Assembly (NCBI RefSeq): GCF_000016745.1
Contig: NC_009483.1
Location: 2,280,001-2,312,000, forward strand
Source of the DNA: Geotalea uraniireducens Rf4
GTDB taxonomy: Bacteria; Desulfobacterota; Desulfuromonadia; Geobacterales; Geobacteraceae
DNA length: 32,000 nt
Direction: 5' to 3'
Shown here: positions 17,976 to 32,000 of the stretch, piece after piece
Layout: every line of letters begins with the position of its first letter
Numbering within the stretch: position 1 is the first letter of the stretch
Translations under genes and position numbers: made by a program
The notes under the pieces: model-generated
Databases searched by the model: none
What the model was told of the DNA's origin: nothing
The model's input: the letters and a program-made list of their open reading frames with translations, nothing else

Positions 17976-18206
17976 GTCCTGTTCTCCTTTCTTTATTTAT
18001 TTCTTTTATAAACGCAGATAGTTGTTTTTGGTTGACAAGGTTTGTTGGGGACGCTGCTGCTCTGAGTTGATATCTTCGGTGGATAAAAGGCGTTTTAATT
18101 AGAGGTTGCCGCCTTCATGGGACAAGTGATATATGTATGTCTGCATGTGGGCCAAACACTAAGCGTGCAGAGAGTGCGGCACGGAAGGAGGGAAAAGCTG
18201 GATTTG

Positions 18207-19790
18207 ATGGTTAAACTGACTGCAATCGTGTTGATCTGCCTGGCAACCACTTGTTTATTTGCCGATACAAAGGCAGACCCTCGTGCTGTCAGGAGCGCAA
18301 ATATTGCGGAGATCAGGAAACTGGCAATTGAGGGTCATGTTGATGCCCAGTTCTATACGGGGTTTATGTATGAAAAAGGGCAGGGCGTACTCCAGGACTA
18401 TGCCGAGGCGGTGAAATGGTATCTGAAAGCGGCCGAGCAGGGGCATGCCGGTGCGCAAATCAATGTCGGCATCATGTATTTCAAGGGGCAGGGGGTATTA
18501 CCGGATTATGCCGAGGCGGCGAAATGGTATCGAAAAGCAGCTCTTCAGGGGAATGCAAACGCTCAATTCAATCTCGGTCTGATGTGCAACAAAGGTCAAG
18601 GGGTATCCCGGGACTATGTCGAGGCGGCGAAATGGTATCTGAAAGCAGCTGAACAGGGGAATAGTGGTGCTCAATTCAATCTCGGTCTGATGTACTACAA
18701 AGGGGACGGGGTTGCACGGAACTTTGCCGAAGCCTTCACATGGTACCGGAAGGCGGCCGAACAGGGGAATGCGGGGGCCCAGTTCAGTCTGGGTTTAATG
18801 TATTATAAAGGTCAAGGAGTGCCGAAGAATTTTGCCGAGGCCGCCGCATGGTATCGTAAGTCTGCTGAGCAGGGGCATGTAGGCGCCCAGTTTAATCTGG
18901 GGTACATGTACGAAATGGAGCAAGGTGCAGTCGGAGGGAATGCCGAAGCGGCAAAATGGTACCGGAAGGCTGCTGAGCAAGGACACGCAGGCGCCCAGTC
19001 TAATCTGGGGTACATTTATGATATCGGAGAAGGGGTGCCCCAGGATCATGCCGAAGCGGCCAAATGGTACAGGAAGGCAGCCGAACAGGGAAATGCCGCT
19101 GCGCAATTAAACCTTGGGATCATGTATGATAATGGTCATGGTATCTCCCAGGACAATGCAGAAGCGGTCAAATGGTATCGCAAGGCTGCGGAACAGGGGG
19201 ATATGACCGCCCAATACAATATGGGAGTCAAGTATGCCAATGGAATCGGCGTGCCGCGCAACAATGCCGAAGCTGTCGAATGGTACCGGAAAGCCGCTGA
19301 CCAGGGGCATGAAATTTCACAGGTCAATCTTGGCCATTTATATGAAAATTCAGACGGCGTACCCCAGGACTATGCGCAAGCACTCAAATGGTATGGTAAG
19401 GCTGCCGAACAGGAAAATAGCGATGCCCAGTTCAGCTTGGGGTTAATGTATGCCAAAGGCCAGGGGACGCCACAGAACTACGCCGAAGCGGCCAAATGGT
19501 ATAGACGGGCGGCTGACCTGGGGAATGAGATTGCGTATTATAATCTGGCAATTCTCTACTATAAAGGTCTGGGTGTGGATCGGGACTATGCCGAAACAGT
19601 AAGATTGCTTAAGGAGGTCGCCGATCAGGAAGATGCAAATGTTCATTTCAGCCTGGGATATATGTATTATAAGGGGCAAGGGGTAATCGAGGACCATGCC
19701 GAAGCTTTGAAATGGTTCAGAAAAGCCGGTGATGAGGGCCTTAAAGAGGCCATGAACTATGTAAATTCAATCGAAAAGAAGGTGAAATGA
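18207..19790 (+). CDS. Secreted Sel1-like repeat (SLR/TPR-like) protein, about 13 tandem 36-aa repeats
   Basis: The repeat unit is AEAAKWYRKAAEQGxAGAQFNLGLMYYKGQGVxxxY. The start is set at ATG 18207, where the signal-like MVKLTAIVLICLATTCLFA begins. The ORF-track start at 18117 adds a non-signal extension. Confidence 0.85.
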   Translation: MVKLTAIVLICLATTCLFADTKADPRAVRSANIAEIRKLAIEGHVDAQFYTGFMYEKGQGVLQDYAEAVKWYLKAAEQGHAGAQINVGIMYFKGQGVLPDYAEAAKWYRKAALQGNANAQFNLGLMCNKGQGVSRDYVEAAKWYLKAAEQGNSGAQFNLGLMYYKGDGVARNFAEAFTWYRKAAEQGNAGAQFSLGLMYYKGQGVPKNFAEAAAWYRKSAEQGHVGAQFNLGYMYEMEQGAVGGNAEAAKWYRKAAEQGHAGAQSNLGYIYDIGEGVPQDHAEAAKWYRKAAEQGNAAAQLNLGIMYDNGHGISQDNAEAVKWYRKAAEQGDMTAQYNMGVKYANGIGVPRNNAEAVEWYRKAADQGHEISQVNLGHLYENSDGVPQDYAQALKWYGKAAEQENSDAQFSLGLMYAKGQGTPQNYAEAAKWYRRAADLGNEIAYYNLAILYYKGLGVDRDYAETVRLLKEVADQEDANVHFSLGYMYYKGQGVIEDHAEALKWFRKAGDEGLKEAMNYVNSIEKKVK

Positions 19791-20339: not shown

Positions 20340-21011
20340 ATGCGCATTTTAGTCGTTGAGGATGAAATTAAAACATCCGCCTTCCTGCGAAAGGGGCTGC
20401 GCGAAAGCGGATTCACCGTTGACGTTGCCAATGATGGCGAAGAAGGGCTCGATCTTGCTCTGAGCAGGGAGTACGACCTGATCATTCTCGATGTCATGCT
20501 TCCGGGGGTCGATGGATGGCAGATAATCAAGAGAATCCGCGGCACAAAGCGGGATACGCCTGTTCTTTTCCTGACGGCACGGGATGCTGTACAAGATCGA
20601 ATCAAGGGGCTGGAGTTGGGCGCAGATGATTATCTGGTCAAACCTTTTGCATTCTCCGAATTACTTGCCCGCATACGCACCATACTCCGCCGCGGCCCGG
20701 TGAGAACCCTGGAGCTGATTCGCATAGCGGATCTTGAAATCGATTTGATGGGTCATAGGGTGATGCGGGGGGGGAAACGGCTCGACTTGACCCCAAAAGA
20801 ATTTGCCCTCCTTTCTCTCCTTGCACGGCGGACAGGGGAGGTCCTTACCAGGACCCGCATTGCGGAACGAATCTGGGATATCGATTTTGAAAGCGATACG
20901 AATGTTGTCGATGTGCATATGCGCCGTCTCCGGGCAAAAGTCGATGATCCGTTCGAGCATAAACTGATTCATACCGTCCGTGGGGTGGGATATGTTCTCG
21001 AAGAGCGATAA
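20340..21011 (+). CDS. OmpR-family response regulator, heavy-metal (CusR/CopR-like) subtype
   Basis: Receiver domain ([26 protein letters not shown]) plus a winged-helix domain ([22 protein letters not shown]...[13 protein letters not shown]...[11 protein letters not shown]). Confidence 0.88.
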
Positions 21012-22461
21012 AGAAACAACGTCTGCTGATCCTGCTCTGCTTCCCTCCAGATCCTGGTCCATTTCACGCCGTTTGATAGCCCACTATTCCCTGTCTGCTT
21101 TCTTAATTTTTAACTTGTCTATCGCTTTAGTCCATCTGGGATTAGTAACCATTACAGAAAAACAGAGTAATCGTTATCTCCAGGATGAAATTAATGTTAT
21201 AGAAAGGCTTTATAAAGCTGGTAATAATTTAAAGCGCCTTGAGCAGAAGTTAGAGGTCGGCTATGCTGCTCGCGAGTTCATGAAAACGTATGCAAGGATT
21301 CTCGATGCAAAAGGTCAGGTAATATTACAAACGCACCTGATGACTAAAGTTGTGCCTGCTACAGTTTTTTCTCAACCCAACGATAGCGGGTATCCTGACA
21401 AAGGTATCAGGTGGAAAGATGAAAACGGTAAAGTGTTTCTTTTGCGATCACTGTGGTTGGACGACGAGGGGGCGAACGGAAACCGGATAATACTTCAGAT
21501 TGCATTGGACATCAGTCACCTGGATCGGATTGTAAAGGATTTCCGTGAAGTCCTTCTGGCCGTAATCATTTTCGGGACTATAATCTCCGCAGTTCTTGCC
21601 GCCATCATTGTCCGCAAGGGGCTGCGTCCACTTAATGAGATAACGGAAAGAACCATGCATATTTCGGCGTATAACCTTGACGAGCGCATGAATATGCCTC
21701 ACTGGCCGAAAGAGGTGAAAACTTTGGCAATAGCGTTCGATGACATGCTCGACCGTTTGCAGGACTCGTTTGACCGACTGTCCAGCTACGTCTCCAATAT
21801 GGCCCACGAATTACGCACGCCGATCAATGTTCTCATGGGTGAAGCGGAGGTGGCCTTGACGAAAGCCAGATCATCCTCGGACTATCGGCGGGTAATCGAA
21901 TCGAATTTGGAAGAATACGGGCGTCTTTCCCGCATCATCGACAGTCTGCTCTTTATTGCCCGCACCGATATAAGAAAATCAACGCTTTTGCGTGAAGAAA
22001 TCATTGTCAGCCAGGAAGTAAAAAAGATTGTGGAATATTACCAGCCACTTGCAGATGATAAGGAGCTAAGCATCACCTGGACGGGAAACGCAACCTTGTC
22101 TGCCGATCCGACCCTGTTCAGGCGAGCGATCAGCAACCTTCTGTCCAATGCCATACATTATACGACTTCAGGCGGTCGCATTGAAATTTCAACCAGGCAG
22201 GCAGACAATCTCTCAATTGAAGTCACCGTGGCCGACACCGGCTGCGGCATGTGTAAAGAAGAGTTGCCGAAAATATTCGACAGATTCTATCGGATCGACG
22301 CCAGCCGCCATGTCCATCCTGAAGGGACAGGTCTTGGCCTTGCCATTGTCAAATCGATCATGGATCTCCACGGCGGAACGGTCAGCATCGAAAGCGAACC
22401 CTCCAAAGGAACTTCCATAACCCTTAAATTTCCCCCGCCAAACATTACGAAATCGTCATAA
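20992..22461 (+). CDS. Heavy-metal-sensor-type histidine kinase (CusS/CopS-like)
   Basis: Two TM segments flank a periplasmic domain, followed by HAMP, the H-box [12 protein letters not shown], and N and G boxes ([21 protein letters not shown]). The start is taken as ATG 20992, overlapping the regulator gene by 20 nt. GTG 20980 is also possible. Confidence 0.88.
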
Positions 22462-22537: not shown

Positions 22538-22568
22538 AAAATGCCCTGCCTTAGCAGGGCATTTTTTG
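22538..22568 (+). terminator. Rho-independent terminator after the histidine kinase gene
   Basis: AAAATGCCCTGC-CTTA-GCAGGGCAT stem-loop followed by TTTTTGTTT. Confidence 0.8.
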
Positions 22569-22633: not shown

Positions 22634-22649
22634 TGGCACTTCCTATGCT
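22634..22649 (+). promoter_or_regulatory. Candidate sigma54 (-24/-12) promoter TGGCAC-N5-ATGCT upstream of the NHL/omcS cluster
   Basis: In TGGCACTTCCTATGCT, GG (22635-22636) and GC (22647-22648) have the canonical spacing of the TGGCACG-N4-TTGCW consensus. It lies about 80 nt upstream of ATG 22730. No enhancer-binding protein gene is visible in the window. Confidence 0.4.
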
Positions 22650-22729
22650 CTTACCTTTTATGAAACCTGACTAAAACAGTCGATAAATATTAAGCTGTAC
22701 ACACGGATTCCGAACTTTCTGAGGGTCCA

Positions 22730-23698
22730 ATGCGAACCATGGGTGAATTGGTGAACAGAATAAAATACGGTCATCTGCTCCTTTCGACAGTACTAGTTCT
22801 TATTGTGCTTTCTACCCCTGTCTTGGGCGGAGAGATCAAGGCGGATTATCTTTACAAACTTTCGGACTTTACCGGCGTTGTACCCTACAGCTGGGTCCGG
22901 CCGGTCGTTGACAGGAAGACCCATGAGATTTACGTCGCAAACTTCAGTGAACGGTCAATACGGGTGTTTAACGAGAATGGGATGCTGGTTTATGAATTCG
23001 GCGATGACATCAATATCGGCAATCTTTACGACCTGGCAATAGCTGACGACGGGAATATCCTCCTGCTTTCTTATAAGGGGACGGCATACGCATTAACAAA
23101 ATGCAATTTCCGCGGGGAACCCATCTCCACCCTTGAGGTGAGAAACCTCCCTCCATCCTTTTCTAAAGATTTCACCCCTACCGTCATTTTCTACCATGGG
23201 GGGCACATCTACCTGGCGGATAAAGAGGCGATGAAGGTCGTGGTTGCCGACGCCAACGGTGATTTTATCGATGGTTACGATCTGGCAGCCATCCTTGAAT
23301 TCGATGATAAAAAGAAGCAGGATTCCGGCCTGGTCGGCTTCAGCGTGGATAGGGAAGGAAACCTGCTCTTTACCGTTCCCGTTATCTTTCAGGCGTACAT
23401 TGTTTCTCCCGACCGGAAGGTTCGGAGTTTCGGAGCACGGGGGAGCAGTCCGGGCAAGTTCAATATTGTCGGCGGTATCGTAGCTGATGACAAGGGAACT
23501 ATCTACGTTACCGATACCTTGAGATGTGTCGTCATGATCTTCGACAAGGATTTCAACTTCAAGACCGAGTTCGGCTATCGGGGGGGCGCCAAGGATAATC
23601 TGATCTCGCCCATGGAGCTGGCAATCGATGGCGACAGGCTGTATGTAACCCAGAGCAGGAACCGGGGAGTCAGCGTCTTCAGAATCACGGCCAACTGA
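22730..23698 (+). CDS. Secreted NHL-repeat beta-propeller protein
   Basis: An N-terminal signal/anchor is followed by repeated NHL-like blades (e.g. GKFNIVGGIVADDKGTIYVTDTLRCVVMIFDKD, ISPMELAIDGDRLYVTQSRNRGVSVFRI). It has no CXXCH. Confidence 0.8.
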   Translation: MRTMGELVNRIKYGHLLLSTVLVLIVLSTPVLGGEIKADYLYKLSDFTGVVPYSWVRPVVDRKTHEIYVANFSERSIRVFNENGMLVYEFGDDINIGNLYDLAIADDGNILLLSYKGTAYALTKCNFRGEPISTLEVRNLPPSFSKDFTPTVIFYHGGHIYLADKEAMKVVVADANGDFIDGYDLAAILEFDDKKKQDSGLVGFSVDREGNLLFTVPVIFQAYIVSPDRKVRSFGARGSSPGKFNIVGGIVADDKGTIYVTDTLRCVVMIFDKDFNFKTEFGYRGGAKDNLISPMELAIDGDRLYVTQSRNRGVSVFRITAN

Positions 23699-23877
23699 GC
23701 TGTTCCGGCCACTCTTGAACAAAGAAAAAGGAGGTGAAAGACATGAGCGGGTAAAAAGACAAACGGTCATCGGTCAGAAGTAAGCTGTATGAAAGACGTA
23801 AAACAAAGAAAGTGGCAAAAAAACAAGAAAACGGAACAAACCAACTAATCAGTTAAGAAATCAAGGAGATATAACAA

Positions 23878-25134
23878 ATGAAATCATCGAAGATTTTATT
23901 GGCAGCAGCGCTCCTCACCTTTGCAGCGGCCGGCAATGCGCTCGCTTTCCATGACGGCGGCGTTGCAACGTGCGACAGCTGTCATACCATGCACAACTCA
24001 TCCGGCGGTGTAAAGATGACGGTTAACAATCAGGCTACCGGCGCCGGCAACGCATACCTCCTCCAGGGAAGCGACCAGAGCTCCACCTGCCTCAAGTGCC
24101 ACTCTGCCGCTACTTTAGGTAGCTATAAAGTTGCCACCAACCCGATTCCTGCGGCCGGCATTCCACCCGTCCAATTCACCCCGGGCGGCGACTTTTCCTG
24201 GCTGCAGAAAACCTTTGGCACGAGCCTCGGGGAGCGGCATGGTCACAACATCATCGCCGGCGACTTCGGCTATGTGGTTGATGCCAAGTTAGCGACCGCA
24301 CCTGGCGGTTCTTATCCTGCAGCAAACCTTGCCTGCAGCAGCTGTCACGATCCCCACGGCAAGTACAGGATCATGGACGCTGCCGGCACTACCGTTGCTA
24401 CTACCGGCAAGCCCATTTTCGACTCAGGCTCTTACGGAGTACTGCCGACAGCCACTGAGGCAGTTGGCGTTTACCGGCTGCTCGCCGGTGTAGGCTATCA
24501 GCCGGTTTCTTTGAGCGGCAACTTCGCCTTTGCCAACAATGTGCCGATCGCCGTGGCTCCGTCCACTTACAACAGGTCTGAAGCTACTTCCGATACCAGG
24601 GTAGCCTATGGCCAGGGCATGTCCGAGTGGTGTTCCAACTGCCACAGCGGTCTGCATAATGTCAACTATCCGACCAGCCTTATCCACCCTGCAGGCAACG
24701 GCGCCAAGTTTTCTTCCGACATCGTCAACAACTACAACTCCTACAAAGCTTCCGGCGACCTGACCGGGACCATTGCCACCTCCTATTCCTCCATGGTTCC
24801 TTACGAAGAAGGCATTACCGACCTGGCTACCCTGGCAGCCAATGGCGCCACAACTACGGGCATGTCGACCTCCAACAACGTCATGTGTCTCTCCTGCCAC
24901 AGGGCCCACGCATCCGGCTGGGACAGCATGACCAGGTGGAACAACAAGGCTGAATTCCTTACCCTGGCCGGCGTCTATCCCGGCAGCGACTCGGCCAATG
25001 CCGAAGCAGCCGTCACAAAGTATCACGGCGGCAGGACTACAGCTGAAGTTCAGGCGACCTTCTACAACAGACCGGCAACCGCTTATGCCACCTATCAGCG
25101 TTCACTGTGCAACAAGTGTCACGCCAAAGACTAA
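23878..25134 (+). CDS. omcS: OmcS-family secreted hexaheme c-type cytochrome (nanowire subunit homolog)
   Basis: Signal peptide MKSSKILLAAALLTFAAAGNALA. There are six CXXCH motifs (C32, C71, C153, C252, C337, C411). Long blocks match my recollection of G. sulfurreducens OmcS: FH.GGVA.C..CHTMHNS, TAPGG..PA..L.CSSCHDPHGKYR, AVAPSTYNR.EAT..TRVAYGQGMSEWC.NCH, HPAGNGAKF, CLSCHRAHASG.DSMTR, and YQR.LCNKCHAKD at the C-terminus. AAGGAGA RBS. Confidence 0.88.
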   Translation: MKSSKILLAAALLTFAAAGNALAFHDGGVATCDSCHTMHNSSGGVKMTVNNQATGAGNAYLLQGSDQSSTCLKCHSAATLGSYKVATNPIPAAGIPPVQFTPGGDFSWLQKTFGTSLGERHGHNIIAGDFGYVVDAKLATAPGGSYPAANLACSSCHDPHGKYRIMDAAGTTVATTGKPIFDSGSYGVLPTATEAVGVYRLLAGVGYQPVSLSGNFAFANNVPIAVAPSTYNRSEATSDTRVAYGQGMSEWCSNCHSGLHNVNYPTSLIHPAGNGAKFSSDIVNNYNSYKASGDLTGTIATSYSSMVPYEEGITDLATLAANGATTTGMSTSNNVMCLSCHRAHASGWDSMTRWNNKAEFLTLAGVYPGSDSANAEAAVTKYHGGRTTAEVQATFYNRPATAYATYQRSLCNKCHAKD

Positions 25135-25178
25135 GGTGGTCATGGCGTAACAATGGGATTTTCCTGCAATGCTTGACT

Positions 25179-25208
25179 GGGGCCGGCTTTATGCCGGCCC
25201 TGCTTTTC
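25179..25208 (+). terminator. Intrinsic terminator-like hairpin directly after the cytochrome gene (probable attenuator within the cluster)
   Basis: GGGCCGGC-TTTAT-GCCGGCCC stem followed by TGCTTTTC, about 45 nt after the stop. Confidence 0.65.
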
Positions 25209-25378
25209 AAAAGAATCATAACCGATGCTGCGTATATTAGATTGTTCCAATAAGTGTGTTAGACTTTTTTCACACTGCATCACGAAAGTTTTCAGCCGGT
25301 TTTCAGTTTATGCCGAGGCGGGTCGGTACAGCTCTACGCCTTCACATTGTCATTGGAGATACGAACGTGACTGCTGAA

Positions 25379-26791
25379 ATGAGGTTGCCACTGAAAAGCC
25401 TGCATGCAATTATTGTCGCTTTTGTCTTCATCTCAGGGTGCCAAACCCTCCCGTCTTATGTAAAACAACCCCTGGCAGAAAATGGTGAACTATATCTCTA
25501 TCTACAGCCGCTTCCACAGGAAGCGGATCGTCTTAGTTTCGCGCTGGCAGGGATTTCAGCGACAAATAAAGACGGAAGCGACTTCCCGCTGATGCTTGAG
25601 CTGAAAGATTTGCGAGGGAGTGATGCGCAGCGTCAACGATTTCTTGCCGTCGGCCGGTTGCCGGCTGGAGATTACACGGGCATCTCATTCAAGGTCAACA
25701 AGGCAACGTTGAAAACCGAGGATGGCGAAGCTTCTCTCGCGATCCCCGAGAGCGCGGTCAGAACCGATGTCTCCTTTACGGTGAACAAGAAGAAGGCTTT
25801 ACTTATAACCTTGACATTGAACTATAAAAATTCGCTCAGGGACGAAGTGAAATTCAGCCCTCTGTTTTCCACCAAAATCCCGGGCAAACCTGTGCCGGGT
25901 CTGGTGGGTTATGTCTCAAATTATGCCGATAATTCGCTTACCGTCGTTGACAAGCAATCCATGCTGGTGACCGGAATAATAGCGACGGGGCGCGGTCCGA
26001 AGGGAATGGCCTTTGACCAGCTGCGACGAAAGGCTTACGTGGCCATTTCCGAGGAAGATGCCATCGAGGTTGTCGATATCCCCACCGGCGAAGTTCTCAA
26101 CAGGATATCTCTCAACACCGGCGACAACCCGCAGGAACTTGCGCTATCCCCTGATGGAAGAACCCTGGTCTCAACCAATGCCGGAACGAACAGCGTAAGT
26201 ATTATCGATCCTGTTTCATTTTTTGAAACCGGCAGGGTCAATGTGGGAGACGGTCCGTCCTCCATTCTGATCGATCCCACCGGGAAAAGGGCATACGTCT
26301 TCAATACCCTTGCCAATACCATTTCCGTCATAGATCTCTCCAAACGGGCGATCGTTTCGACCATCGTCACCGAACCATGGCCTGTGAGAGGACAGTTCAA
26401 CAGAAGCGGGGATGCACTTTACGTAATTCAGAGACTGAGTTCTTACCTGACGGTCTTAAACCCCGCTTCACTCGTCGTTACGAAGCGCAAATATATTGGA
26501 ACGGGAGCCAATGCCGTCAAGGTTGACAGTAATACCGATCAAATCTACGTGGGGAAACAGTATGAACCCTGGCTGGCGGTTTACGACCCGTTTTCCTTTC
26601 TTCCCGGCGACTCGATCAAGGCAGGAAGCGACAACGCCTATCTGACCATCGATGGAGAAGGAAACAACCTCTGTGTGGTAGACGCCGGAAGAAAGTCCCT
26701 TTTGTTCATTAACCTTGTGAGCAGAAAAGTTGTCGGCGAGATCGATGTGGGAGAAGCCCCCTACTGGGTTTCATTGATGGGGGAGAGGTAA
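25379..26791 (+). CDS. Lipoprotein with N-terminal beta-sandwich (DUF4382-like) domain and YVTN-type beta-propeller
   Basis: MRLPLKSLHAIIVAFVFISGC carries a lipobox. Repeated YVTN/YncE-like blades are present (NSLTVVD, GPKGMAFD..KAYVA, AIEVVD, NPQELALSPDGRTLVSTN, NSVSIID, TISVIDL...). The start is ATG 25379 or GTG 25367; the ORF-track start at 25256 adds a non-signal extension. There is no CXXCH motif. Confidence 0.8.
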   Translation: MRLPLKSLHAIIVAFVFISGCQTLPSYVKQPLAENGELYLYLQPLPQEADRLSFALAGISATNKDGSDFPLMLELKDLRGSDAQRQRFLAVGRLPAGDYTGISFKVNKATLKTEDGEASLAIPESAVRTDVSFTVNKKKALLITLTLNYKNSLRDEVKFSPLFSTKIPGKPVPGLVGYVSNYADNSLTVVDKQSMLVTGIIATGRGPKGMAFDQLRRKAYVAISEEDAIEVVDIPTGEVLNRISLNTGDNPQELALSPDGRTLVSTNAGTNSVSIIDPVSFFETGRVNVGDGPSSILIDPTGKRAYVFNTLANTISVIDLSKRAIVSTIVTEPWPVRGQFNRSGDALYVIQRLSSYLTVLNPASLVVTKRKYIGTGANAVKVDSNTDQIYVGKQYEPWLAVYDPFSFLPGDSIKAGSDNAYLTIDGEGNNLCVVDAGRKSLLFINLVSRKVVGEIDVGEAPYWVSLMGER

Positions 26792-26798
26792 GTAGCTC

Positions 26799-29036
26799 GT
26801 GCATTACGCAAAAATCAGTTGTTCCCGTATTTCTCTTGTTCGGGTGTTGTTTTTGATGGTTTTGGTTATTGGATGTTTGCCGGGTAGTGCTGAAGCAGAT
26901 TCATTCAACGGCTTCTTTGAATGGAATTATACGAATGTTGATTCCACAACCAACAACAGTGCCAACGAAATGACAAAAAACAAATCCGACAATTTCAACC
27001 AGCGATACAGCCTCTCACTGGACAAGAGCCTGTTTCCCACGCTCCGTCTGGTAACAAGCGGCATCTTTGAAAAAGATATGAGCTGGATCACCACCAATGA
27101 CAGCAAGTCAGATACATCGGTGACGACTCTGCGTCCATCGGTCGATCTTACCCTCAATACCCTCCTCTATACTGCAGGAATCGGCTACAACCGGAGGGAT
27201 GAAACCTCGAAAACATCGGGCACACCCGATTCAACCGCGATCAACGAGGATTTTCACGCACTGTTCGGCTGGAGGCCGGTTGGTCTGCCCAAGGTAGACC
27301 TGCTGTTGACCAGGTCGAATACCTTCGACGCGAGTCGGCTTCTCCGCGACTCAACCAATGACAGGGTATTGCTCAGCATGAGATATTTGCCGCTCAAGTC
27401 GCTCGATCTCAAGTACCAGGGGGTCTATAGCGATGCAACGGACAGGCTGCAAGGGTTTGAGTCCCGGGAATTAACCAACAGCGGGCGGTTCACCTATTCT
27501 GACCAGTTTTTCAAACAGCGGCTGTTAGTGAATACCACGTATAATGTAACCCGGCAGGACACCAAGACCTTCACGACAGGCGCCGGCGAAATTCCTATCC
27601 AGCTCTTTCCGTTCAACGGCTTGTATGCTCCGAGCGATACCCCGGCAGTGGCGGCGCTCGCTTCATTCCCAGCCCTGATAAACGGTGATGCTGCCACATC
27701 GGCCGGCATCGATTCGCTTGGGGTTCCGACACCGGGCAACGGTGAAACCAGACCGAGAAACATTGGTGTTGATTTTGTTAACCCTACAGAGGTCAATACC
27801 CTCTTCGTCTTTGTTGATCGTGATCTTCCCCCGGGTATCGCCAACTTTTTTTCCTGGGATGTCTATACGACTTCAGAAGACCCCGGATCGGGAAATCCTG
27901 AATGGACCTTGGTGAAAACCATTGCGGCTGCACCTTTTACCCCGTTTCTCAACAGTTTTCGCTTTCAGATCGACTTTCCAAACGTGACTGCCCGGGCTGT
28001 GAAAGTTGTCGTCACACCCCTGACGCCGGTTGCCGCTGCACTTACGCCGACCTTTCAGAATCCCGACAGGATATTCGTTACGGAGGTTCAGGCTTATATC
28101 AGAAAATCGGCAAATGAGGTGAAAGGGGATGCCGGCAGAACTTCGCACATTTACAACATGGACGTAAAAGCAAGATTGCTTGATGTCCTCGCGCTCTATT
28201 ACGACGGGTCGTTTTTTTTCACCCGCACGTCTCCATCTTCCACAACGCGCTACACCCTCTCGAACGGTCTTCACCTGGATCATACCTTCAACGACATGAT
28301 ATCGGGGAGCAGCCGCGTGGCACGGGAAGACGACGAAGAGCCGGACGGCCACAGGGTGTCGTACCTGTACAGCGCTTCCCTGAAAGCGGTTCCTGTAAAA
28401 ACATTGAGTCATACCCTGATTTACAGCGGCCGTAACGAGGCGATCAGCGGAAAAACAAAAAACACCAACTCCCTCACCCTTTACAATTATGCCGAATTGT
28501 ACAAGGGGCTCAACCTCAACCTATCCGGCGGGGCAACCTTCGTTACCACCGAAACGGGAGTGAAAGAGGAAAACTACAACGTTGTCTTCGGCGCCAACAT
28601 TGTCCCCAACAAGACCTTGAGCATGAACGTCAACTATACGTTCAACAAAACCAACACCACCGGCGGGTTAACGAGTCAAGCTACCGGTTTGTTTCAGCAG
28701 CGGGCGGAACTCAACGCAACGTTCAGACCGTTCGCCACCCTCTACCTGTTCGCTTCTTTGGGGATGGTGGACCAGGACAGTAAAACCGATACCCTGATGA
28801 ATTACGGCGCCAACTGGTCTCCGTTCCCGGACGGCACCATTCAGTTCAATTTCTCATACAATGAGAGCCTGAGAACCCAGGATAACTCGAAGATACGACT
28901 GATTACACCCAGCCTTTCCTGGAAGGTGACAAGCTATAGCCTGCTTGATGTTGCTTACGCGTTTACGACCTCTGATTCAATCACTCAAACGGTTGATTCA
29001 AAGATATTCAACGTGAATTACAAAATATTCTTTTAG
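26799..29036 (+). CDS. Predicted outer-membrane beta-barrel protein with central discoidin/galactose-binding-like insert
   Basis: GTG start with GGGGGAGAGG upstream, and a signal peptide ending AEA. The N- and C-terminal thirds show alternating-hydrophobicity strands rich in Y/N/T/S, and the protein ends ...VNYKIFF (aromatic terminus typical of OMPs). The middle (about aa 285-435) reads like an F5/8-type-C jelly roll (NIGVDF..PTEVNTLFVFV....FSWDVYTSEDPG..W......F.IDFP.VTARAVKVVV...IFVTEVQAY). Confidence 0.7.
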   Translation: MHYAKISCSRISLVRVLFLMVLVIGCLPGSAEADSFNGFFEWNYTNVDSTTNNSANEMTKNKSDNFNQRYSLSLDKSLFPTLRLVTSGIFEKDMSWITTNDSKSDTSVTTLRPSVDLTLNTLLYTAGIGYNRRDETSKTSGTPDSTAINEDFHALFGWRPVGLPKVDLLLTRSNTFDASRLLRDSTNDRVLLSMRYLPLKSLDLKYQGVYSDATDRLQGFESRELTNSGRFTYSDQFFKQRLLVNTTYNVTRQDTKTFTTGAGEIPIQLFPFNGLYAPSDTPAVAALASFPALINGDAATSAGIDSLGVPTPGNGETRPRNIGVDFVNPTEVNTLFVFVDRDLPPGIANFFSWDVYTTSEDPGSGNPEWTLVKTIAAAPFTPFLNSFRFQIDFPNVTARAVKVVVTPLTPVAAALTPTFQNPDRIFVTEVQAYIRKSANEVKGDAGRTSHIYNMDVKARLLDVLALYYDGSFFFTRTSPSSTTRYTLSNGLHLDHTFNDMISGSSRVAREDDEEPDGHRVSYLYSASLKAVPVKTLSHTLIYSGRNEAISGKTKNTNSLTLYNYAELYKGLNLNLSGGATFVTTETGVKEENYNVVFGANIVPNKTLSMNVNYTFNKTNTTGGLTSQATGLFQQRAELNATFRPFATLYLFASLGMVDQDSKTDTLMNYGANWSPFPDGTIQFNFSYNESLRTQDNSKIRLITPSLSWKVTSYSLLDVAYAFTTSDSITQTVDSKIFNVNYKIFF

Positions 29037-29067
29037 TCTTACTGAGAATCGAGGTCAGACATAAATC

Positions 29068-29658
29068 ATGAAGCGCTTAAGGTGTGAAATGAAACGTATT
29101 GTCAGTACAGTCGTCCTTGCCGTTATTTATGTTGCGACAATCGGCTGCGCAACTCCTGCCGAGATTTTCCGCGACCCGAACATGGATTTCGGATCGATCC
29201 GCTCCGTTGCCGTGTTGCCGTTCGCAAACCTTACCCGCGACAATCAGGCTGCCGACAGGGTACGGGATGTTTTTTCCCATATGCTGCTGGCAACCGGGGC
29301 CATTTACGTGGTACCTGCCGGCGAAGTCGTCCGTGGCATCTCCCGGGTGGGCATTGCCAATCCTGCAGCACCGTCTCCGGAGGATATCACGAAGCTGGCC
29401 GGCATCATCAAGGTGGATGCGGTTGTTACCGGGGTTGTCAGGGAATACGGAGAGGTCAGGTCGGGAAGCTCTGGTGCGAATATCATCTCCCTGAGCCTCC
29501 AGATGATCGAAACCCAGACAGGGCGAATAGTCTGGACAGCCTCTGCTACGAAAGGCGGTATCGGCATGTCGGAGCGACTTTTGGGCGGCGGCGGCGAACC
29601 AATGAACAAGATTACCGAACAGGCAGTAAATGAACTTATCGATAAGCTTTTTCAATAG
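29068..29658 (+). CDS. Lipoprotein, GNA1162/DUF799/LpoB-like single module
   Basis: Lipobox VATIGC. The pattern IRSVAVLPFANLT....A..V......L...G.YVVP ... KVDAVVTGVVREYG ... LQMIETQTGRIVW is typical of that fold family. An alternative start is ATG 29089. Confidence 0.7.
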   Translation: MKRLRCEMKRIVSTVVLAVIYVATIGCATPAEIFRDPNMDFGSIRSVAVLPFANLTRDNQAADRVRDVFSHMLLATGAIYVVPAGEVVRGISRVGIANPAAPSPEDITKLAGIIKVDAVVTGVVREYGEVRSGSSGANIISLSLQMIETQTGRIVWTASATKGGIGMSERLLGGGGEPMNKITEQAVNELIDKLFQ

Positions 29659-30754
29659 AACGATCCTGTTGTTTGCGGTCATCTGCTTTCTTGCCGGGTG
29701 TGCACGGACAACGGCAGCATTGCGGGCCGAGGAGCAGCCTGGCAAGGGGAACCGCTGCATTGCCGTACTGCCCGTGGAAAACCTGAGCGGTACGGCAGTT
29801 CCCCTGAAAAGCATCCGCCAGTCGCTGGTGGAGAAAATGGGTAAGCTGGGGATGTGCACCCTTGACGAAAAAACAGTCGACGATTTTATGGCCCATCACC
29901 GCATGCGCTACACAGGGGGCATTGACAAGGAATTATCCCGGGCATTCAAGACCGAAACCGGGGCAGCAGCCGTGCTCATCACTTCGCTGGAACTGTACAG
30001 CGACGTAAATCCGCCCAAGGTGGCATTGGCATGCCGTCTGGTCTCAACGGGAGAAAATCCGGTTATTCTCGGGATCGATTCTGTTGCCTTGTCCGGTGAC
30101 GACTCACCCGGCTTGCTCGGGCTCGGCCTGATAGAAAAACCGGGCGAGCTTATGGATAATGCCCTTAATCGCATCTCGGCATCCCTTTATCGTCAATTTG
30201 AAGGGGTAAACGACATGAACGTCAGCCAACCGTGGATGAAAAAATTCAAGCCCAGGATATCTTACCGTTCGCCGAGCCTGGATATGGAACAGAAGCATAC
30301 CATTGCGGTCATTCCGTTCCTTAATAAGAGTGGCCGCAAGAATGCCGGAGAGATTTTGGCGCTCCAGTTTGTCGAACAACTGGCAAAGATGAAAAAATTC
30401 AACGTAATCGAACCGGGTATCGTTCGCCAGGAATTCCTGAAATTCAGGATCATCATGGAAGGGGGGGTCTCCCTTGCCAATGCCGATGTCATTTTCACCG
30501 ACCTGGATGCCGACCTGATCTTCACCGGGGAGGTAATGGATTATCAGGACTATCAAGGCGCCATGGGCACCCCCACGGTCGGTTTTTCAATTATCGTGCT
30601 GGACAGAAAAAGCCGGGAAGTTGTCTGGGCCTCTGAAAGTTACAACGATGGTGATGACAGGGTCTACTTTTTCGATGTGGGAAAAGTAAAGACCGCCGAA
30701 GCAATGGCCTCTCAAATGACCCATGCGGTGGTGGATATGATGACGATAAAATAA
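29630..30754 (+). CDS. Lipoprotein with two tandem GNA1162/DUF799/LpoB-like modules
   Basis: Lipobox FLAGC. Module 1 starts CIAVLPVENLSG and module 2 starts TIAVIPFLNKSG, each followed by the ...DL(I/V)FTG.V/LITSLELY... and ...VVW motifs. It overlaps the preceding gene by 29 nt. Confidence 0.7.
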   Translation: MNLSISFFNRTILLFAVICFLAGCARTTAALRAEEQPGKGNRCIAVLPVENLSGTAVPLKSIRQSLVEKMGKLGMCTLDEKTVDDFMAHHRMRYTGGIDKELSRAFKTETGAAAVLITSLELYSDVNPPKVALACRLVSTGENPVILGIDSVALSGDDSPGLLGLGLIEKPGELMDNALNRISASLYRQFEGVNDMNVSQPWMKKFKPRISYRSPSLDMEQKHTIAVIPFLNKSGRKNAGEILALQFVEQLAKMKKFNVIEPGIVRQEFLKFRIIMEGGVSLANADVIFTDLDADLIFTGEVMDYQDYQGAMGTPTVGFSIIVLDRKSREVVWASESYNDGDDRVYFFDVGKVKTAEAMASQMTHAVVDMMTIK

Positions 30755-30814
30755 GATGTGGTTCAACGGGCAGGGCGTTATGCAGACAAACTGGAAATAA
30801 TAAAAGGGAGCACT

Positions 30815-32000
30815 ATGAAACGGATTGCCAGGGTATCAGAAATTTGTTTGATCAGCTTGTTGCTTACCGGAACTGTCGGTTTCGCAGCCGACCAGAAGGA
30901 GTTGCCTGCAATTGTCAAAGAGGACGTGAAAGAGGGTGCTGTCCCGGTTGCAGAGACACAAATTACCTTGAAGGTGCCTCTTTTTTCGCCGCTTTTTGCC
31001 TCTTTTCCCGTGGCAACGGTAGGTGACGAGCAGGTAACACTCGATGAGCTCAATAAATCCCTTGCAGCGCTCCATGAAAGGGCGGGTGAGGATAAAACTG
31101 CCGGCAGGAAAAAGTACGTCACGGTCCTCAATCGGCTCATCAACAGCAGACTGATCGTCCAGGAAGCAGAGAGCATGGGGCTTGAAGAGTTGCCGGAAGT
31201 GAAGCAGAAGCTGGACGATTTCCCCAGGATGGCCTTGAAGGAAGAGTTGAAAGACCTGCAGATAAAGAGTCTGCAACCCGATGCAACTGAAGTGGAGAAA
31301 TACTACAAGGAAGCGGTCAAGGAATGGAAGATAAAATCGGTAAAATTCGAGAAAGAGGATGATGCGAAAGAGCTGGCGCGGACAGTTCAAGCCGGCGGCA
31401 ATTTCGATGAACTGGTCAATACGCTTATTGACAGCGGTAAGGCTACGGGAACCAAGGAGGGGGAGTACGTAAAGGCCAGGGATCTTCTTCCCCAGGTGGC
31501 GAACGTCGTAGCAGGAATGCGGGCCGGTTCGGTGAGCCCGGTTATCCAGGTAGGGCCGTCTTATGCGATCTTCAAGCTTGAAGACGTGCGCTATCCTGCC
31601 GGCAATGCCGAGGCGCAGGACGCGGCACGGGAGCAGGCACTCGCCATGAAGCAGATCGAGGCTCTTGCTGCGTACAACAAGTCGCTGACCAAAAAATATG
31701 CAAAAATCAATCAGAAACTTCTGGATAAACTGGATTTCGAGGCTGCAAAACCGGGATTCGCTCAACTCTTAAAGGACAGAAGGGTTGTCGTGGAGATCAA
31801 GGGGGACAAGCCGATAACGGTTGCCGATATGGCGGAATCCCTCAGCCAGAAGTTCTTCCACGGTATTGATGAGGCGATCAAGGGGAAGAGAATTAACGAG
31901 CAGAAGATGTCTGCCCTTTATGACATATTTTATGCCAGGCTGTATCTCAAGGAAGCGAAAAAACTGGGAATTGACAAGACCGGGCATTACAAAGACAGGA
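30815..32000 (+). CDS. SurA/PpiD-like periplasmic chaperone with parvulin-type PPIase-like domain (3' end outside window)
   Basis: This gene is not in the ORF track because it has no stop in the window. I translated it by hand from ATG 30815 (AAAAGGGAG upstream): MKRIARVSEICLISLLLTGTVGFAADQKE...VTLDELNKSLAALHE...LINSRLIVQEAESMGL...WKIKSVKFEKEDDAKELARTVQAGGNFDELV...GSVSPVIQVGPSYAIFKLEDV... It is open for 395 codons to position 32000. Confidence 0.8.
   Translation, partial: MKRIARVSEICLISLLLTGTVGFAADQKELPAIVKEDVKEGAVPVAETQITLKVPLFSPLFASFPVATVGDEQVTLDELNKSLAALHERAGEDKTAGRKKYVTVLNRLINSRLIVQEAESMGLEELPEVKQKLDDFPRMALKEELKDLQIKSLQPDATEVEKYYKEAVKEWKIKSVKFEKEDDAKELARTVQAGGNFDELVNTLIDSGKATGTKEGEYVKARDLLPQVANVVAGMRAGSVSPVIQVGPSYAIFKLEDVRYPAGNAEAQDAAREQALAMKQIEALAAYNKSLTKKYAKINQKLLDKLDFEAAKPGFAQLLKDRRVVVEIKGDKPITVADMAESLSQKFFHGIDEAIKGKRINEQKMSALYDIFYARLYLKEAKKLGIDKTGHYKDR

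Follow-up and report, generated by a model that had tools for sequence, protein, structure and literature searches.

Seven co-directional genes at the 3′ end of a 32,000-nucleotide (nt) stretch of the Geotalea uraniireducens Rf4 chromosome (NC_009483.1, positions 2,280,001 to 2,312,000; hereafter the window, in whose own numbering coordinates are given), one of them encoding a hexaheme cytochrome of the OmcS family, very probably constitute the G. uraniireducens ortholog of the omcS-companion (osc) cluster of G. sulfurreducens, in its common minimal layout and with an assembly mechanism that is proposed below. The locus itself is already known. The osc cluster, GSU2505-GSU2493, was defined by Shen et al. 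(2025; Cell Chem Biol 32:239), as related in the papers that cite it (PMC13194489; PMC12977616), and this very neighbourhood of G. uraniireducens is in print, being boxed in Fig. 4 of the latter (mBio 2026) together with those of G. daltonii, G. luticola and Geobacter sp. H2geo. With the work of Shen et al. (2025) known via these citing papers, what is added here comprises the minimal layout as the norm, the description of the cytochrome as an outparalog, the PelC-like modules of the lipoproteins, a predicted barrel of about 28 strands with an F5/8-type-C insert, a hairpin kept across phyla and a cluster that continues past the end of the window.

Correspondence to the osc cluster and its distribution across genomes

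An earlier note on this DNA, written from the sequence alone, had suggested a correspondence of the gene order to GSU2505-GSU2497 and the osc cluster. The correspondence is correct, as judged from homology and gene order in L004, a G. sulfurreducens-type locus, and from the sizes of the Osc proteins. L004, which has an OmcS almost identical in sequence to 6EF8 and serves as the reference for pairwise identities, encodes in order a 315-amino-acid (aa) NHL-like protein, OmcS, OmcT, a 1017-aa spermine-synthase-like protein, a third OmcS-like cytochrome, a YNCE propeller, a 718-aa protein and a GNA1162-like lipoprotein. This locus and a further one, L005, end inside oscF; OscG and OscH of the window were assigned by size, domains and synteny. 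The sizes given for G. sulfurreducens (OscA 289, OscB 1017, OscD 473, OscE 701, OscG 367 and OscH 548 residues; PMC13194489 supplement) lead to a mapping in which the NHL protein is OscA, the propeller lipoprotein OscD, the outer-membrane barrel OscE, the two smaller lipoproteins OscF and OscG, and the peptidyl-prolyl isomerase (PPIase) OscH, with a fit of 374 against 367 aa for OscG and of 585 against 548 aa for OscH. In the account of Shen et al. (2025) given by PMC13194489, OscH acts in folding, OscE, OscF and OscG in secretion and OscD in filament morphology in G. sulfurreducens.

Both clusters have the same components in the same order, and the identities that were measured directly lie at 39-66%. 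They differ in that G. sulfurreducens has three cytochromes (OmcS, OmcT and GSU2501/OscC) where the window has one, and a 1017-aa OscB between omcT and the third cytochrome gene, which is missing from the window. Furthermore, the propeller of L004 carries a CXXCH motif at its lipobox whereas that of the window has none, and an OmpR-type two-component system stands upstream in the window, in contrast to the histidine kinase and sigma-54 activator of L004.

Syntenic loci were collected by scanning an alignment of the barrel against one genome per GTDB species, which yielded 80 loci in at least five phyla, with Geobacteraceae, other Thermodesulfobacteriota, Nitrospirota, Acidobacteriota, Rokubacteria and Schekmanbacteria among them, while a profile search of 1.84 billion representative proteins gave 860 relatives of the barrel at E ≤ 1e-30. 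Synteny is counted over informative loci, i.e. those with enough flanking DNA around the barrel gene. An OmcS-family gene is present in 61 of 62 such loci when it is required to be co-directional and no more than 6.5 kb upstream of the barrel gene, and in the exception it lies at 7.4 kb. The propeller gene is 5′ of the barrel gene in 60 of 62 loci and the NHL gene 5′ of the cytochrome gene in 55 of 57, while OscF (60/61), OscG (59/61) and the PPIase (52/61) are encoded 3′ of the barrel; in most of the other nine loci (L021, L026, L064, L068, L073) the PPIase gene is found 5′ of the barrel gene on the opposite strand. Synteny of the downstream genes with omcS homologs in other genomes, which the earlier note had proposed as a check, hence holds in 59-61 of 61-62 loci for OscF, OscG and the OmcS-family gene, and less strictly for the PPIase.

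Beside the machinery there is one cytochrome copy in 54 of 62 loci, with two in 5 and three in 2. The single omcS copy and the propeller devoid of a heme motif had been regarded as notable differences; both are true of the window, but they represent the majority (54/62 loci and 76/77 propeller orthologs, respectively). The layout of the window is the common minimal form, and G. sulfurreducens is the elaborated outlier. G. daltonii FRC-32 has exactly the window's gene order, including the upstream two-component system. The OscB homolog (1017 aa, spermine-synthase-like), which is not found in the window, occurs in 20 of 85 loci, and in Acidobacteriota is encoded between oscF and oscG (L046 12825, L049 12783, L052 12776, L059 12663, L061 12708, L072 12789).

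Seven genes and a single omcS copy are indeed what is seen in the window, but the conserved cluster runs past the window end. In relatives, the PPIase gene is followed by genes for a 657-aa cytochrome with 26 CXXCH motifs (61/80 loci), a 427-aa cytochrome with 16 (63/80) and a second NHL protein (41/80), a block which spans 15982-20157 in L002 and 16045-20220 in L006. The corresponding genes of G. uraniireducens are inferred from G. daltonii and a close metagenome-assembled genome, and the window would thus hold seven of at least ten conserved cluster genes. Several Geobacteraceae also have a second OmcS-family gene, ca. 9-11 kb past the barrel gene (L002 21208-22220; L017, L019 and L025 at ~20900; L007 14135; L044, L065 and L078 at ~22000, minus strand), and in G. 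uraniireducens such a gene may lie just outside the window. The post-PPIase genes and this second OmcS-family gene probably correspond to OscI, OscJ and GSU2493, and they suggest that the cluster also encodes a periplasmic electron feed.

Within the window, the seven co-directional ORFs (open reading frames) are found where the earlier note had placed them (Table 1), and the spacings it gave for the five genes from the propeller lipoprotein onwards (7 nt, 31 nt, a 29-nt overlap, 60 nt) are correct to the nucleotide. The barrel and the 374-aa lipoprotein are 100% identical to public G. uraniireducens proteins. Domain searches were carried out with Pfam and NCBIfam, AlphaFold2 models were searched by Foldseek against the Protein Data Bank (PDB), and sequences were compared with the PDB by phmmer. 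As had been claimed, no ATPase, type II secretion system or pilus domain is detected by Pfam and NCBIfam in any of the seven products.

Start sites deserve comment in two of the genes. The propeller lipoprotein had been identified correctly, but the start at 25256 is less likely than a GTG at 25367, which has GGAGA 6 nt upstream and gives a protein of 474 aa with a FISGC lipobox, equal in length to that of the G. daltonii gene. The proposed start lies 232 nt past the end of the cytochrome gene, which is itself preceded by a strong AAGGAG ribosome-binding site. The GTG start of the barrel gene at 26799 has GGAGAGG 9 nt upstream and is followed by a signal peptide, while the public record of 688 aa would be without one; alignments with homologs begin near residue 18 of the 745-aa ORF (window 26799-26970), and the deposited start is probably too far downstream.

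Table 1. Features of the osc-like cluster and of the adjoining regulatory genes, in window coordinates.
Feature	Position	Strand	Basis
OmpR-type response regulator	20340..21011	+	Response_reg + Trans_reg_C
Sensor histidine kinase, partner of the OmpR-type regulator	20980..22461	+	HAMP, HisKA, HATPase_c
Sigma-54-like -24/-12 element TGGCACttcctATGCT, weak	22634..22649	+	81 nt 5′ of NHL start
oscA-like secreted NHL-repeat beta-propeller, 322 aa, signal peptide	22730..23698	+	Pfam NHL
OmcS-family hexaheme c-type cytochrome, 418 aa including signal peptide	23878..25134	+	phmmer against 6EF8/6NEF
GC-rich stem-loop, terminator/attenuator-like	25179..25201	+	Folding
oscD-like propeller lipoprotein	25367..26791 (mechanical ORF from 25256)	+	YNCE/YVTN
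oscE-like outer-membrane beta-barrel, 745 aa, C-terminal NYKIFF	26799..29036	+	AlphaFold2 model
oscF-like lipoprotein, 196 aa, lipobox ATIGC	29068..29658	+	Pfam GNA1162-like, PelC
oscG-like lipoprotein, 374 aa, lipobox FLAGC	29630..30754	+	Model, Foldseek
oscH-like periplasmic SurA-N/parvulin PPIase, open at window end	30815..32000	+	Pfam Rotamase_2, SurA_N_3

The cytochrome and its companion proteins

The secreted cytochrome had been recognised as an OmcS homolog, with full-length alignment to OmcS as a check, and phmmer aligns it end to end with 6EF8/6NEF (E 2.4e-133 for 6EF8, residues 24-418 against 1-407). It contains six CXXCH motifs, none being present in the other six products, and six further histidines (mature H2, H16, H100, H137, H247 and H321) are kept in 88-89 of 89 cluster-linked homologs, as are the six CXXCH motifs, which makes 12 presumed heme axial ligands in all. 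His16 of OmcS, which we take from the 2019 OmcS structures to be a ligand to the heme of the neighbouring subunit, is kept in 88 of the 89, with no spare conserved histidine as a substitute. This conservation argues that head-to-tail heme ligation would be ancestral.

Identity of the cytochrome to the paralogs in L004 is 56% for OmcS and 51% each for OmcT and the GSU2501-like copy. In a neighbour-joining (NJ) tree of the 89 cluster-linked cytochromes with 60 bootstraps, a simple method giving moderate support, it falls into a Geobacteraceae clade with the copies of G. daltonii, Geomobilimonas and Geomonas, while OmcS branches with the GSU2501-like paralog, leaving the window protein outside, in 47 of 60 bootstraps, and with OmcT in the same manner in 50 of 60. 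The best description of the window cytochrome, with moderate support, is that of an OmcS-family protein which is an outparalog to each of these three paralogs. Here the present description departs from PMC12977616, in which this cytochrome is named GSU2501-like by its position, whereas its identity is slightly nearer to OmcS (56% vs 51%). The same paper proposes GSU2501-type proteins to be ancestral; these would either form an uncharacterised nanowire or have belonged to a secretion system that OmcS came to use afterwards (PMC12977616).

Two beta-propeller proteins accompany the cytochrome. The NHL protein matches the ScyF-like NHL family of NCBIfam (2.8e-18) besides Pfam NHL, and has 40% identity to the product of the 315-aa gene 5′ of omcS in L004 and 65% to that of the G. 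daltonii gene. The OscD-like lipoprotein is composed of an N-terminal beta-sandwich region and a 7-bladed YVTN/YNCE beta-propeller (Pfam YNCE 6e-12; TIGR02276 YVTN repeat 1e-23), with an identity of 45% to the L004 propeller, spanning nearly the full length, and of 62% to the G. daltonii gene. CXXCH is absent from this protein and from 76 of 77 propeller orthologs, the sole ortholog which has it being that of L004 (17193-18671), where the motif overlaps the lipobox (LACSGCH). With the motif confined to this one ortholog, heme-dependent behaviour of OscD, if there is any, would be specific to that lineage.

The 745-aa product ending in KIFF, predicted by the earlier note to be an outer-membrane beta-barrel, is modelled as such by AlphaFold2 (pLDDT 88.1), with ca. 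28 strands (28 or 30 can be read from the DSSP string). In the model a separate beta-domain, at about residues 264-441, is set between two strands of the barrel; it is of the NedA-like/F5/8-type-C galactose-binding kind, for which Pfam PF22633 matches 18 of 49 homologs. Identity to the 718-aa gene of L004 is 39% over nearly the full length, and neither the Pfam nor the NCBIfam search assigns the barrel itself to a family. By the standard barrel-geometry formula, rather than from model coordinates, 28 strands would give an estimated Cα diameter of about 50 Å, which would be compatible with the passage of a folded heme protein.

Downstream of the barrel, the claim of three GNA1162/LpoB-like modules in two lipoproteins is upheld both by sequence and by predicted structure. 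The OscF-like protein consists of one PelC/GNA1162-fold module (Pfam GNA1162-like, 2.6e-8), with phmmer matches in the PDB to PelC (4e-5 to 4e-3; 9H80, 4e-5; 5T0Z, 4e-4) and GNA1162 (4HRV, 2e-3), and is 66% identical to the L004 gene, a copy cut by the end of that locus. The OscG-like protein is modelled (pLDDT 79.6, pTM 0.81) as two tandem alpha/beta modules, 43-190 and 223-372, whose best Foldseek matches are the PelC structures 5T0Z, 5T10, 5T11 and 9H80 (E 1e-9, TMt 0.62-0.79), followed by GNA1162, TolB-N, CsgG and LpoB. Its C-terminal module aligns with the OscF-like protein (E 3e-8), and among 34 OscG homologs Pfam matches are to LpoB in 9, GNA1162 in 5 and CsgG in 2. Judged by these models and alignments, the closest solved analogue of the lipoprotein modules is the PelC ring of PelBC, with CsgG only a distant fold relative.

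The last gene was likewise read correctly as that of a SurA/parvulin-like chaperone running past the window (Pfam Rotamase_2 1.5e-12, and SurA_N_3). Its full length, as seen for the gene in L086, is 585 aa with two parvulin domains, the second Rotamase_2 match being at 419-544.

Hairpins, upstream regulators and surroundings

The hairpin reported after the cytochrome gene is real, reading GGGGCCGGC-TTTAT-GCCGGCCCT and then GCTTTTC, and a 45-nt segment around it folds at -21.5 kcal/mol. Within 150 nt of the cytochrome stop, a hairpin of -18 kcal/mol or lower is found in 56 of 59 related loci vs 49 of 177 (28%) random 150-nt controls, with median energies of -25.2 and -15.1 kcal/mol, respectively, and a T-rich tail follows it in 30 of the 59. 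The hairpin is kept across phyla while its sequences vary by lineage, so that it is the structure, and not the sequence, which recurs. Such conservation supports the earlier proposal of an abundant subunit gene followed by an attenuator; with partial read-through past the hairpin, subunit mRNA would probably be much more abundant than machinery mRNA. A promoter scan gave no convincing sigma-70 promoter 5′ of either the NHL or the cytochrome gene, and the terminator rule of the same scan missed the cytochrome hairpin.

Upstream of the cluster lie the OmpR-type response regulator and its partner kinase (Table 1). A homolog of the regulator with 67-88% identity occupies the same site in the Geobacteraceae loci L002, L006, L008, L017, L019, L025, L063, L065 and L078, where the histidine kinase adjoins it as well, and from this conserved adjacency the two-component system probably controls the cluster. 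L004 and loci of many other phyla have a kinase and a sigma-54-type activator in place of the OmpR-type pair. The two-component genes are divided from the cluster by a strong hairpin, like an intrinsic terminator, after the kinase gene, at 22538-22565, with a 12-bp stem followed by TTTTTTGTTT. The sigma-54-like element 5′ of the NHL gene, at the very position from which the region of the earlier note starts, has one mismatch to TGGCAC-N5-TTGCW, a degree of likeness that occurs 19 times in the window with 16.5 occurrences expected at random; while its position is weakly suggestive, it is statistically like chance, and the adjoining regulator is OmpR-type and not a sigma-54 activator.

The remainder of the window 5′ of the cluster is ordinary chromosome, encoding a phosphatase, a response regulator, an ADP-ribosylglycohydrolase, a GNAT acetyltransferase, a DEAD helicase, an M28 peptidase, Lnt, a BON protein, SbcCD, a methyltransferase, an aspartyl protease and a Sel1 protein. 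The last of these, a 557-aa protein of 12 Sel1 repeats, is encoded at 18117-19790, 550 nt 5′ of the two-component genes. In G. daltonii and other Geobacteraceae a small Sel1 protein closes the cluster.

Proposed assembly of the cytochrome and competing explanations

In the mechanism proposed for the cluster, the cytochrome would be exported by Sec and loaded with its six hemes in the periplasm, as its signal peptide and CXXCH motifs imply, together with what is established for the maturation of c-type cytochromes. The double-parvulin SurA-like chaperone would keep it assembly-competent, as has been reported for OscH in G. sulfurreducens. The cytochrome may then cross the outer membrane through the barrel of ca. 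28 strands, or else anchor on it, while the PelC-fold modules, one from OscF and two from OscG, whose folds are modelled, would organise the periplasmic mouth of the barrel much as the PelC ring does beneath PelB. Once outside, the subunits would join head to tail into a polymer, His16 of one ligating the heme of the next, by analogy with the solved OmcS filaments. The hairpin after the cytochrome gene would serve to raise subunit over machinery mRNA, and the upstream OmpR-type two-component system, given its adjacency, would govern the cluster as a whole.

Several points weigh against this explanation. A 2019 review argued from physiology that G. uraniireducens makes no use of long cytochrome filaments, depending on an electron shuttle and yielding low current densities (PMC6771412), and the sole known wire-former is OmcS itself (PMC12977616). 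One-to-one orthology with GSU2504 OmcS is rejected, with moderate support, by the NJ bootstraps (47/60 and 50/60). In addition, Foldseek finds no specific PDB relative of the barrel among the 50 matches listed (TM ≤ 0.38), which are generic large barrels such as TonB-dependent receptors, MtrB (6R2Q_B, the best, TMq 0.34) and FimD, and the role of channel is consequently drawn from fold and context. With regard to filaments in G. uraniireducens, physiology speaks against them, and a ligand set that is conserved and a machinery that is intact speak for them.

These same physiological arguments (PMC6771412) lend some weight to an alternative in which the cluster, in G. uraniireducens and perhaps in most lineages, exports the cytochrome and displays it at the surface as single molecules or short oligomers and not as micrometre-long nanowires, long wires being a later speciality of the G. 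sulfurreducens OmcS paralog. In 47-50 of 60 bootstraps the window cytochrome does not fall within the OmcS/OmcT/GSU2501 group, which points the same way. This alternative is nevertheless unlikely in view of the retention of His16, the inter-subunit ligand of OmcS, in 88 of 89 homologs with no spare conserved histidine, and of a whole ligand set and protein length that are OmcS-like. Less likely by far is that the barrel acts as a sheath like those of MtrAB/Pcc porin-cytochrome complexes, holding a cytochrome in the outer membrane for trans-membrane electron transfer and not secreting a fibre subunit. MtrB does have the top TM-score of the barrel's PDB matches, and, with no MtrA-like gene in the window itself, 26-heme and 16-heme cytochromes are encoded just 3′ of the PPIase in relatives; however, that score is low and the other top matches are unrelated large barrels, and G. 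sulfurreducens OmcS is extracellular and polymeric in its PDB filament entries. The Osc genes are moreover reported, in the account given by PMC13194489, to act in secretion and folding, and PelC-like ring lipoproteins and a PPIase are foreign to known porin-cytochrome complexes.

Since both lipoproteins have PelC as their nearest relative of solved structure, and the barrel has a galactose-binding-like domain, the barrel and lipoproteins could also be imagined to export an exopolysaccharide or other matrix polymer, being linked to the cytochrome by genome position alone. This is the most improbable of the explanations considered, and hardly credible given the near-obligate linkage to an OmcS-family gene (61/62 loci), the lack of any glycosyltransferase or polysaccharide synthesis gene in the window by Pfam domain scans, and the absence of PelB among the 50 matches listed for the barrel, in which no TPR is detected. 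PelB is a 16-strand barrel with TPR repeats. PelBC (9H80; PelC dodecamers 5T10/5T11; G. metallireducens PelC 5T0Z) resembles the present system in having PelC-fold lipoproteins beside an outer-membrane barrel gene, but differs from it in that the window barrel has ca. 28 predicted strands and an F5/8-C insert and is without TPR, in that there is one PelC there and three modules in two proteins here, and in that the cargo is a polysaccharide there and a heme protein here. A Pel polysaccharide exporter was accordingly rejected as an identification, there being no Pel or TPR domains, no synthesis genes and a near-obligate cytochrome linkage.

The earlier note had likened the layout to the logic of curli and chaperone-assisted fibres. 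For curli the likeness stands as far as it concerns an abundant subunit gene and an outer-membrane lipoprotein machinery without an ATPase, but CsgG proves to be only distant. In curli, CsgG is itself the pore, whereas the window has a separate large barrel protein, and the subunit there is an unfolded amyloid protein whereas here it would be a folded, cofactor-loaded cytochrome. A CsgG homolog was discarded as a candidate, with a TM-score to CsgG of only 0.22-0.27, a separate barrel gene and a cytochrome as subunit. With chaperone-usher pili (FimD/PapC) the cluster has in common a chaperone in the periplasm, one large barrel in the outer membrane and, as proposed here, ATP-free polymerisation of subunits, and FimD is among the Foldseek matches of the barrel at rank 18 (TMq 0.24). 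Homology to chaperone-usher systems was also rejected, no Ig-fold chaperone and no usher plug or N/C-terminal domains being detected.

Returning to the cytochrome assembly proposed above, a more specific form of it can be put forward tentatively, as a possibility that is rather less probable than its opposite. OscE, OscF and OscG may together make up an outer-membrane translocon of the PelBC kind that has been turned to the export of a folded protein with its hemes in place, in which a barrel of ca. 28 strands with a discoidin-type domain would stand over a hetero-oligomeric PelC-fold ring of three modules per OscF:OscG pair (four pairs, for example, would give a pseudo-dodecamer), and the single-copy cytochrome of the minimal layout may represent, in place of OmcS proper, the ancestral subunit of nanowires that Nitrospirota, Acidobacteriota, Rokubacteria and most Geobacteraceae would make. 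A literature search, with matches judged by title, gave no title on a link between PelC and OmcS.

Cytochrome nanowires are a leading explanation for long-range extracellular electron transfer in sediments. The window adds no new system to this field, but displays the nanowire machinery in its minimal and commonest form, and what interest remains attaches to the proposed ring of PelC-like modules, to a barrel with an inserted domain and to an attenuator-like hairpin that is conserved. G. uraniireducens or G. daltonii would offer a cleaner genetic model than G. sulfurreducens, since the latter has three paralogs and OscB. Finally, G. uraniireducens is the cited counter-example to electron transfer by cytochrome filaments, and whether the intact cluster in its genome yields filaments bears directly on that dispute.

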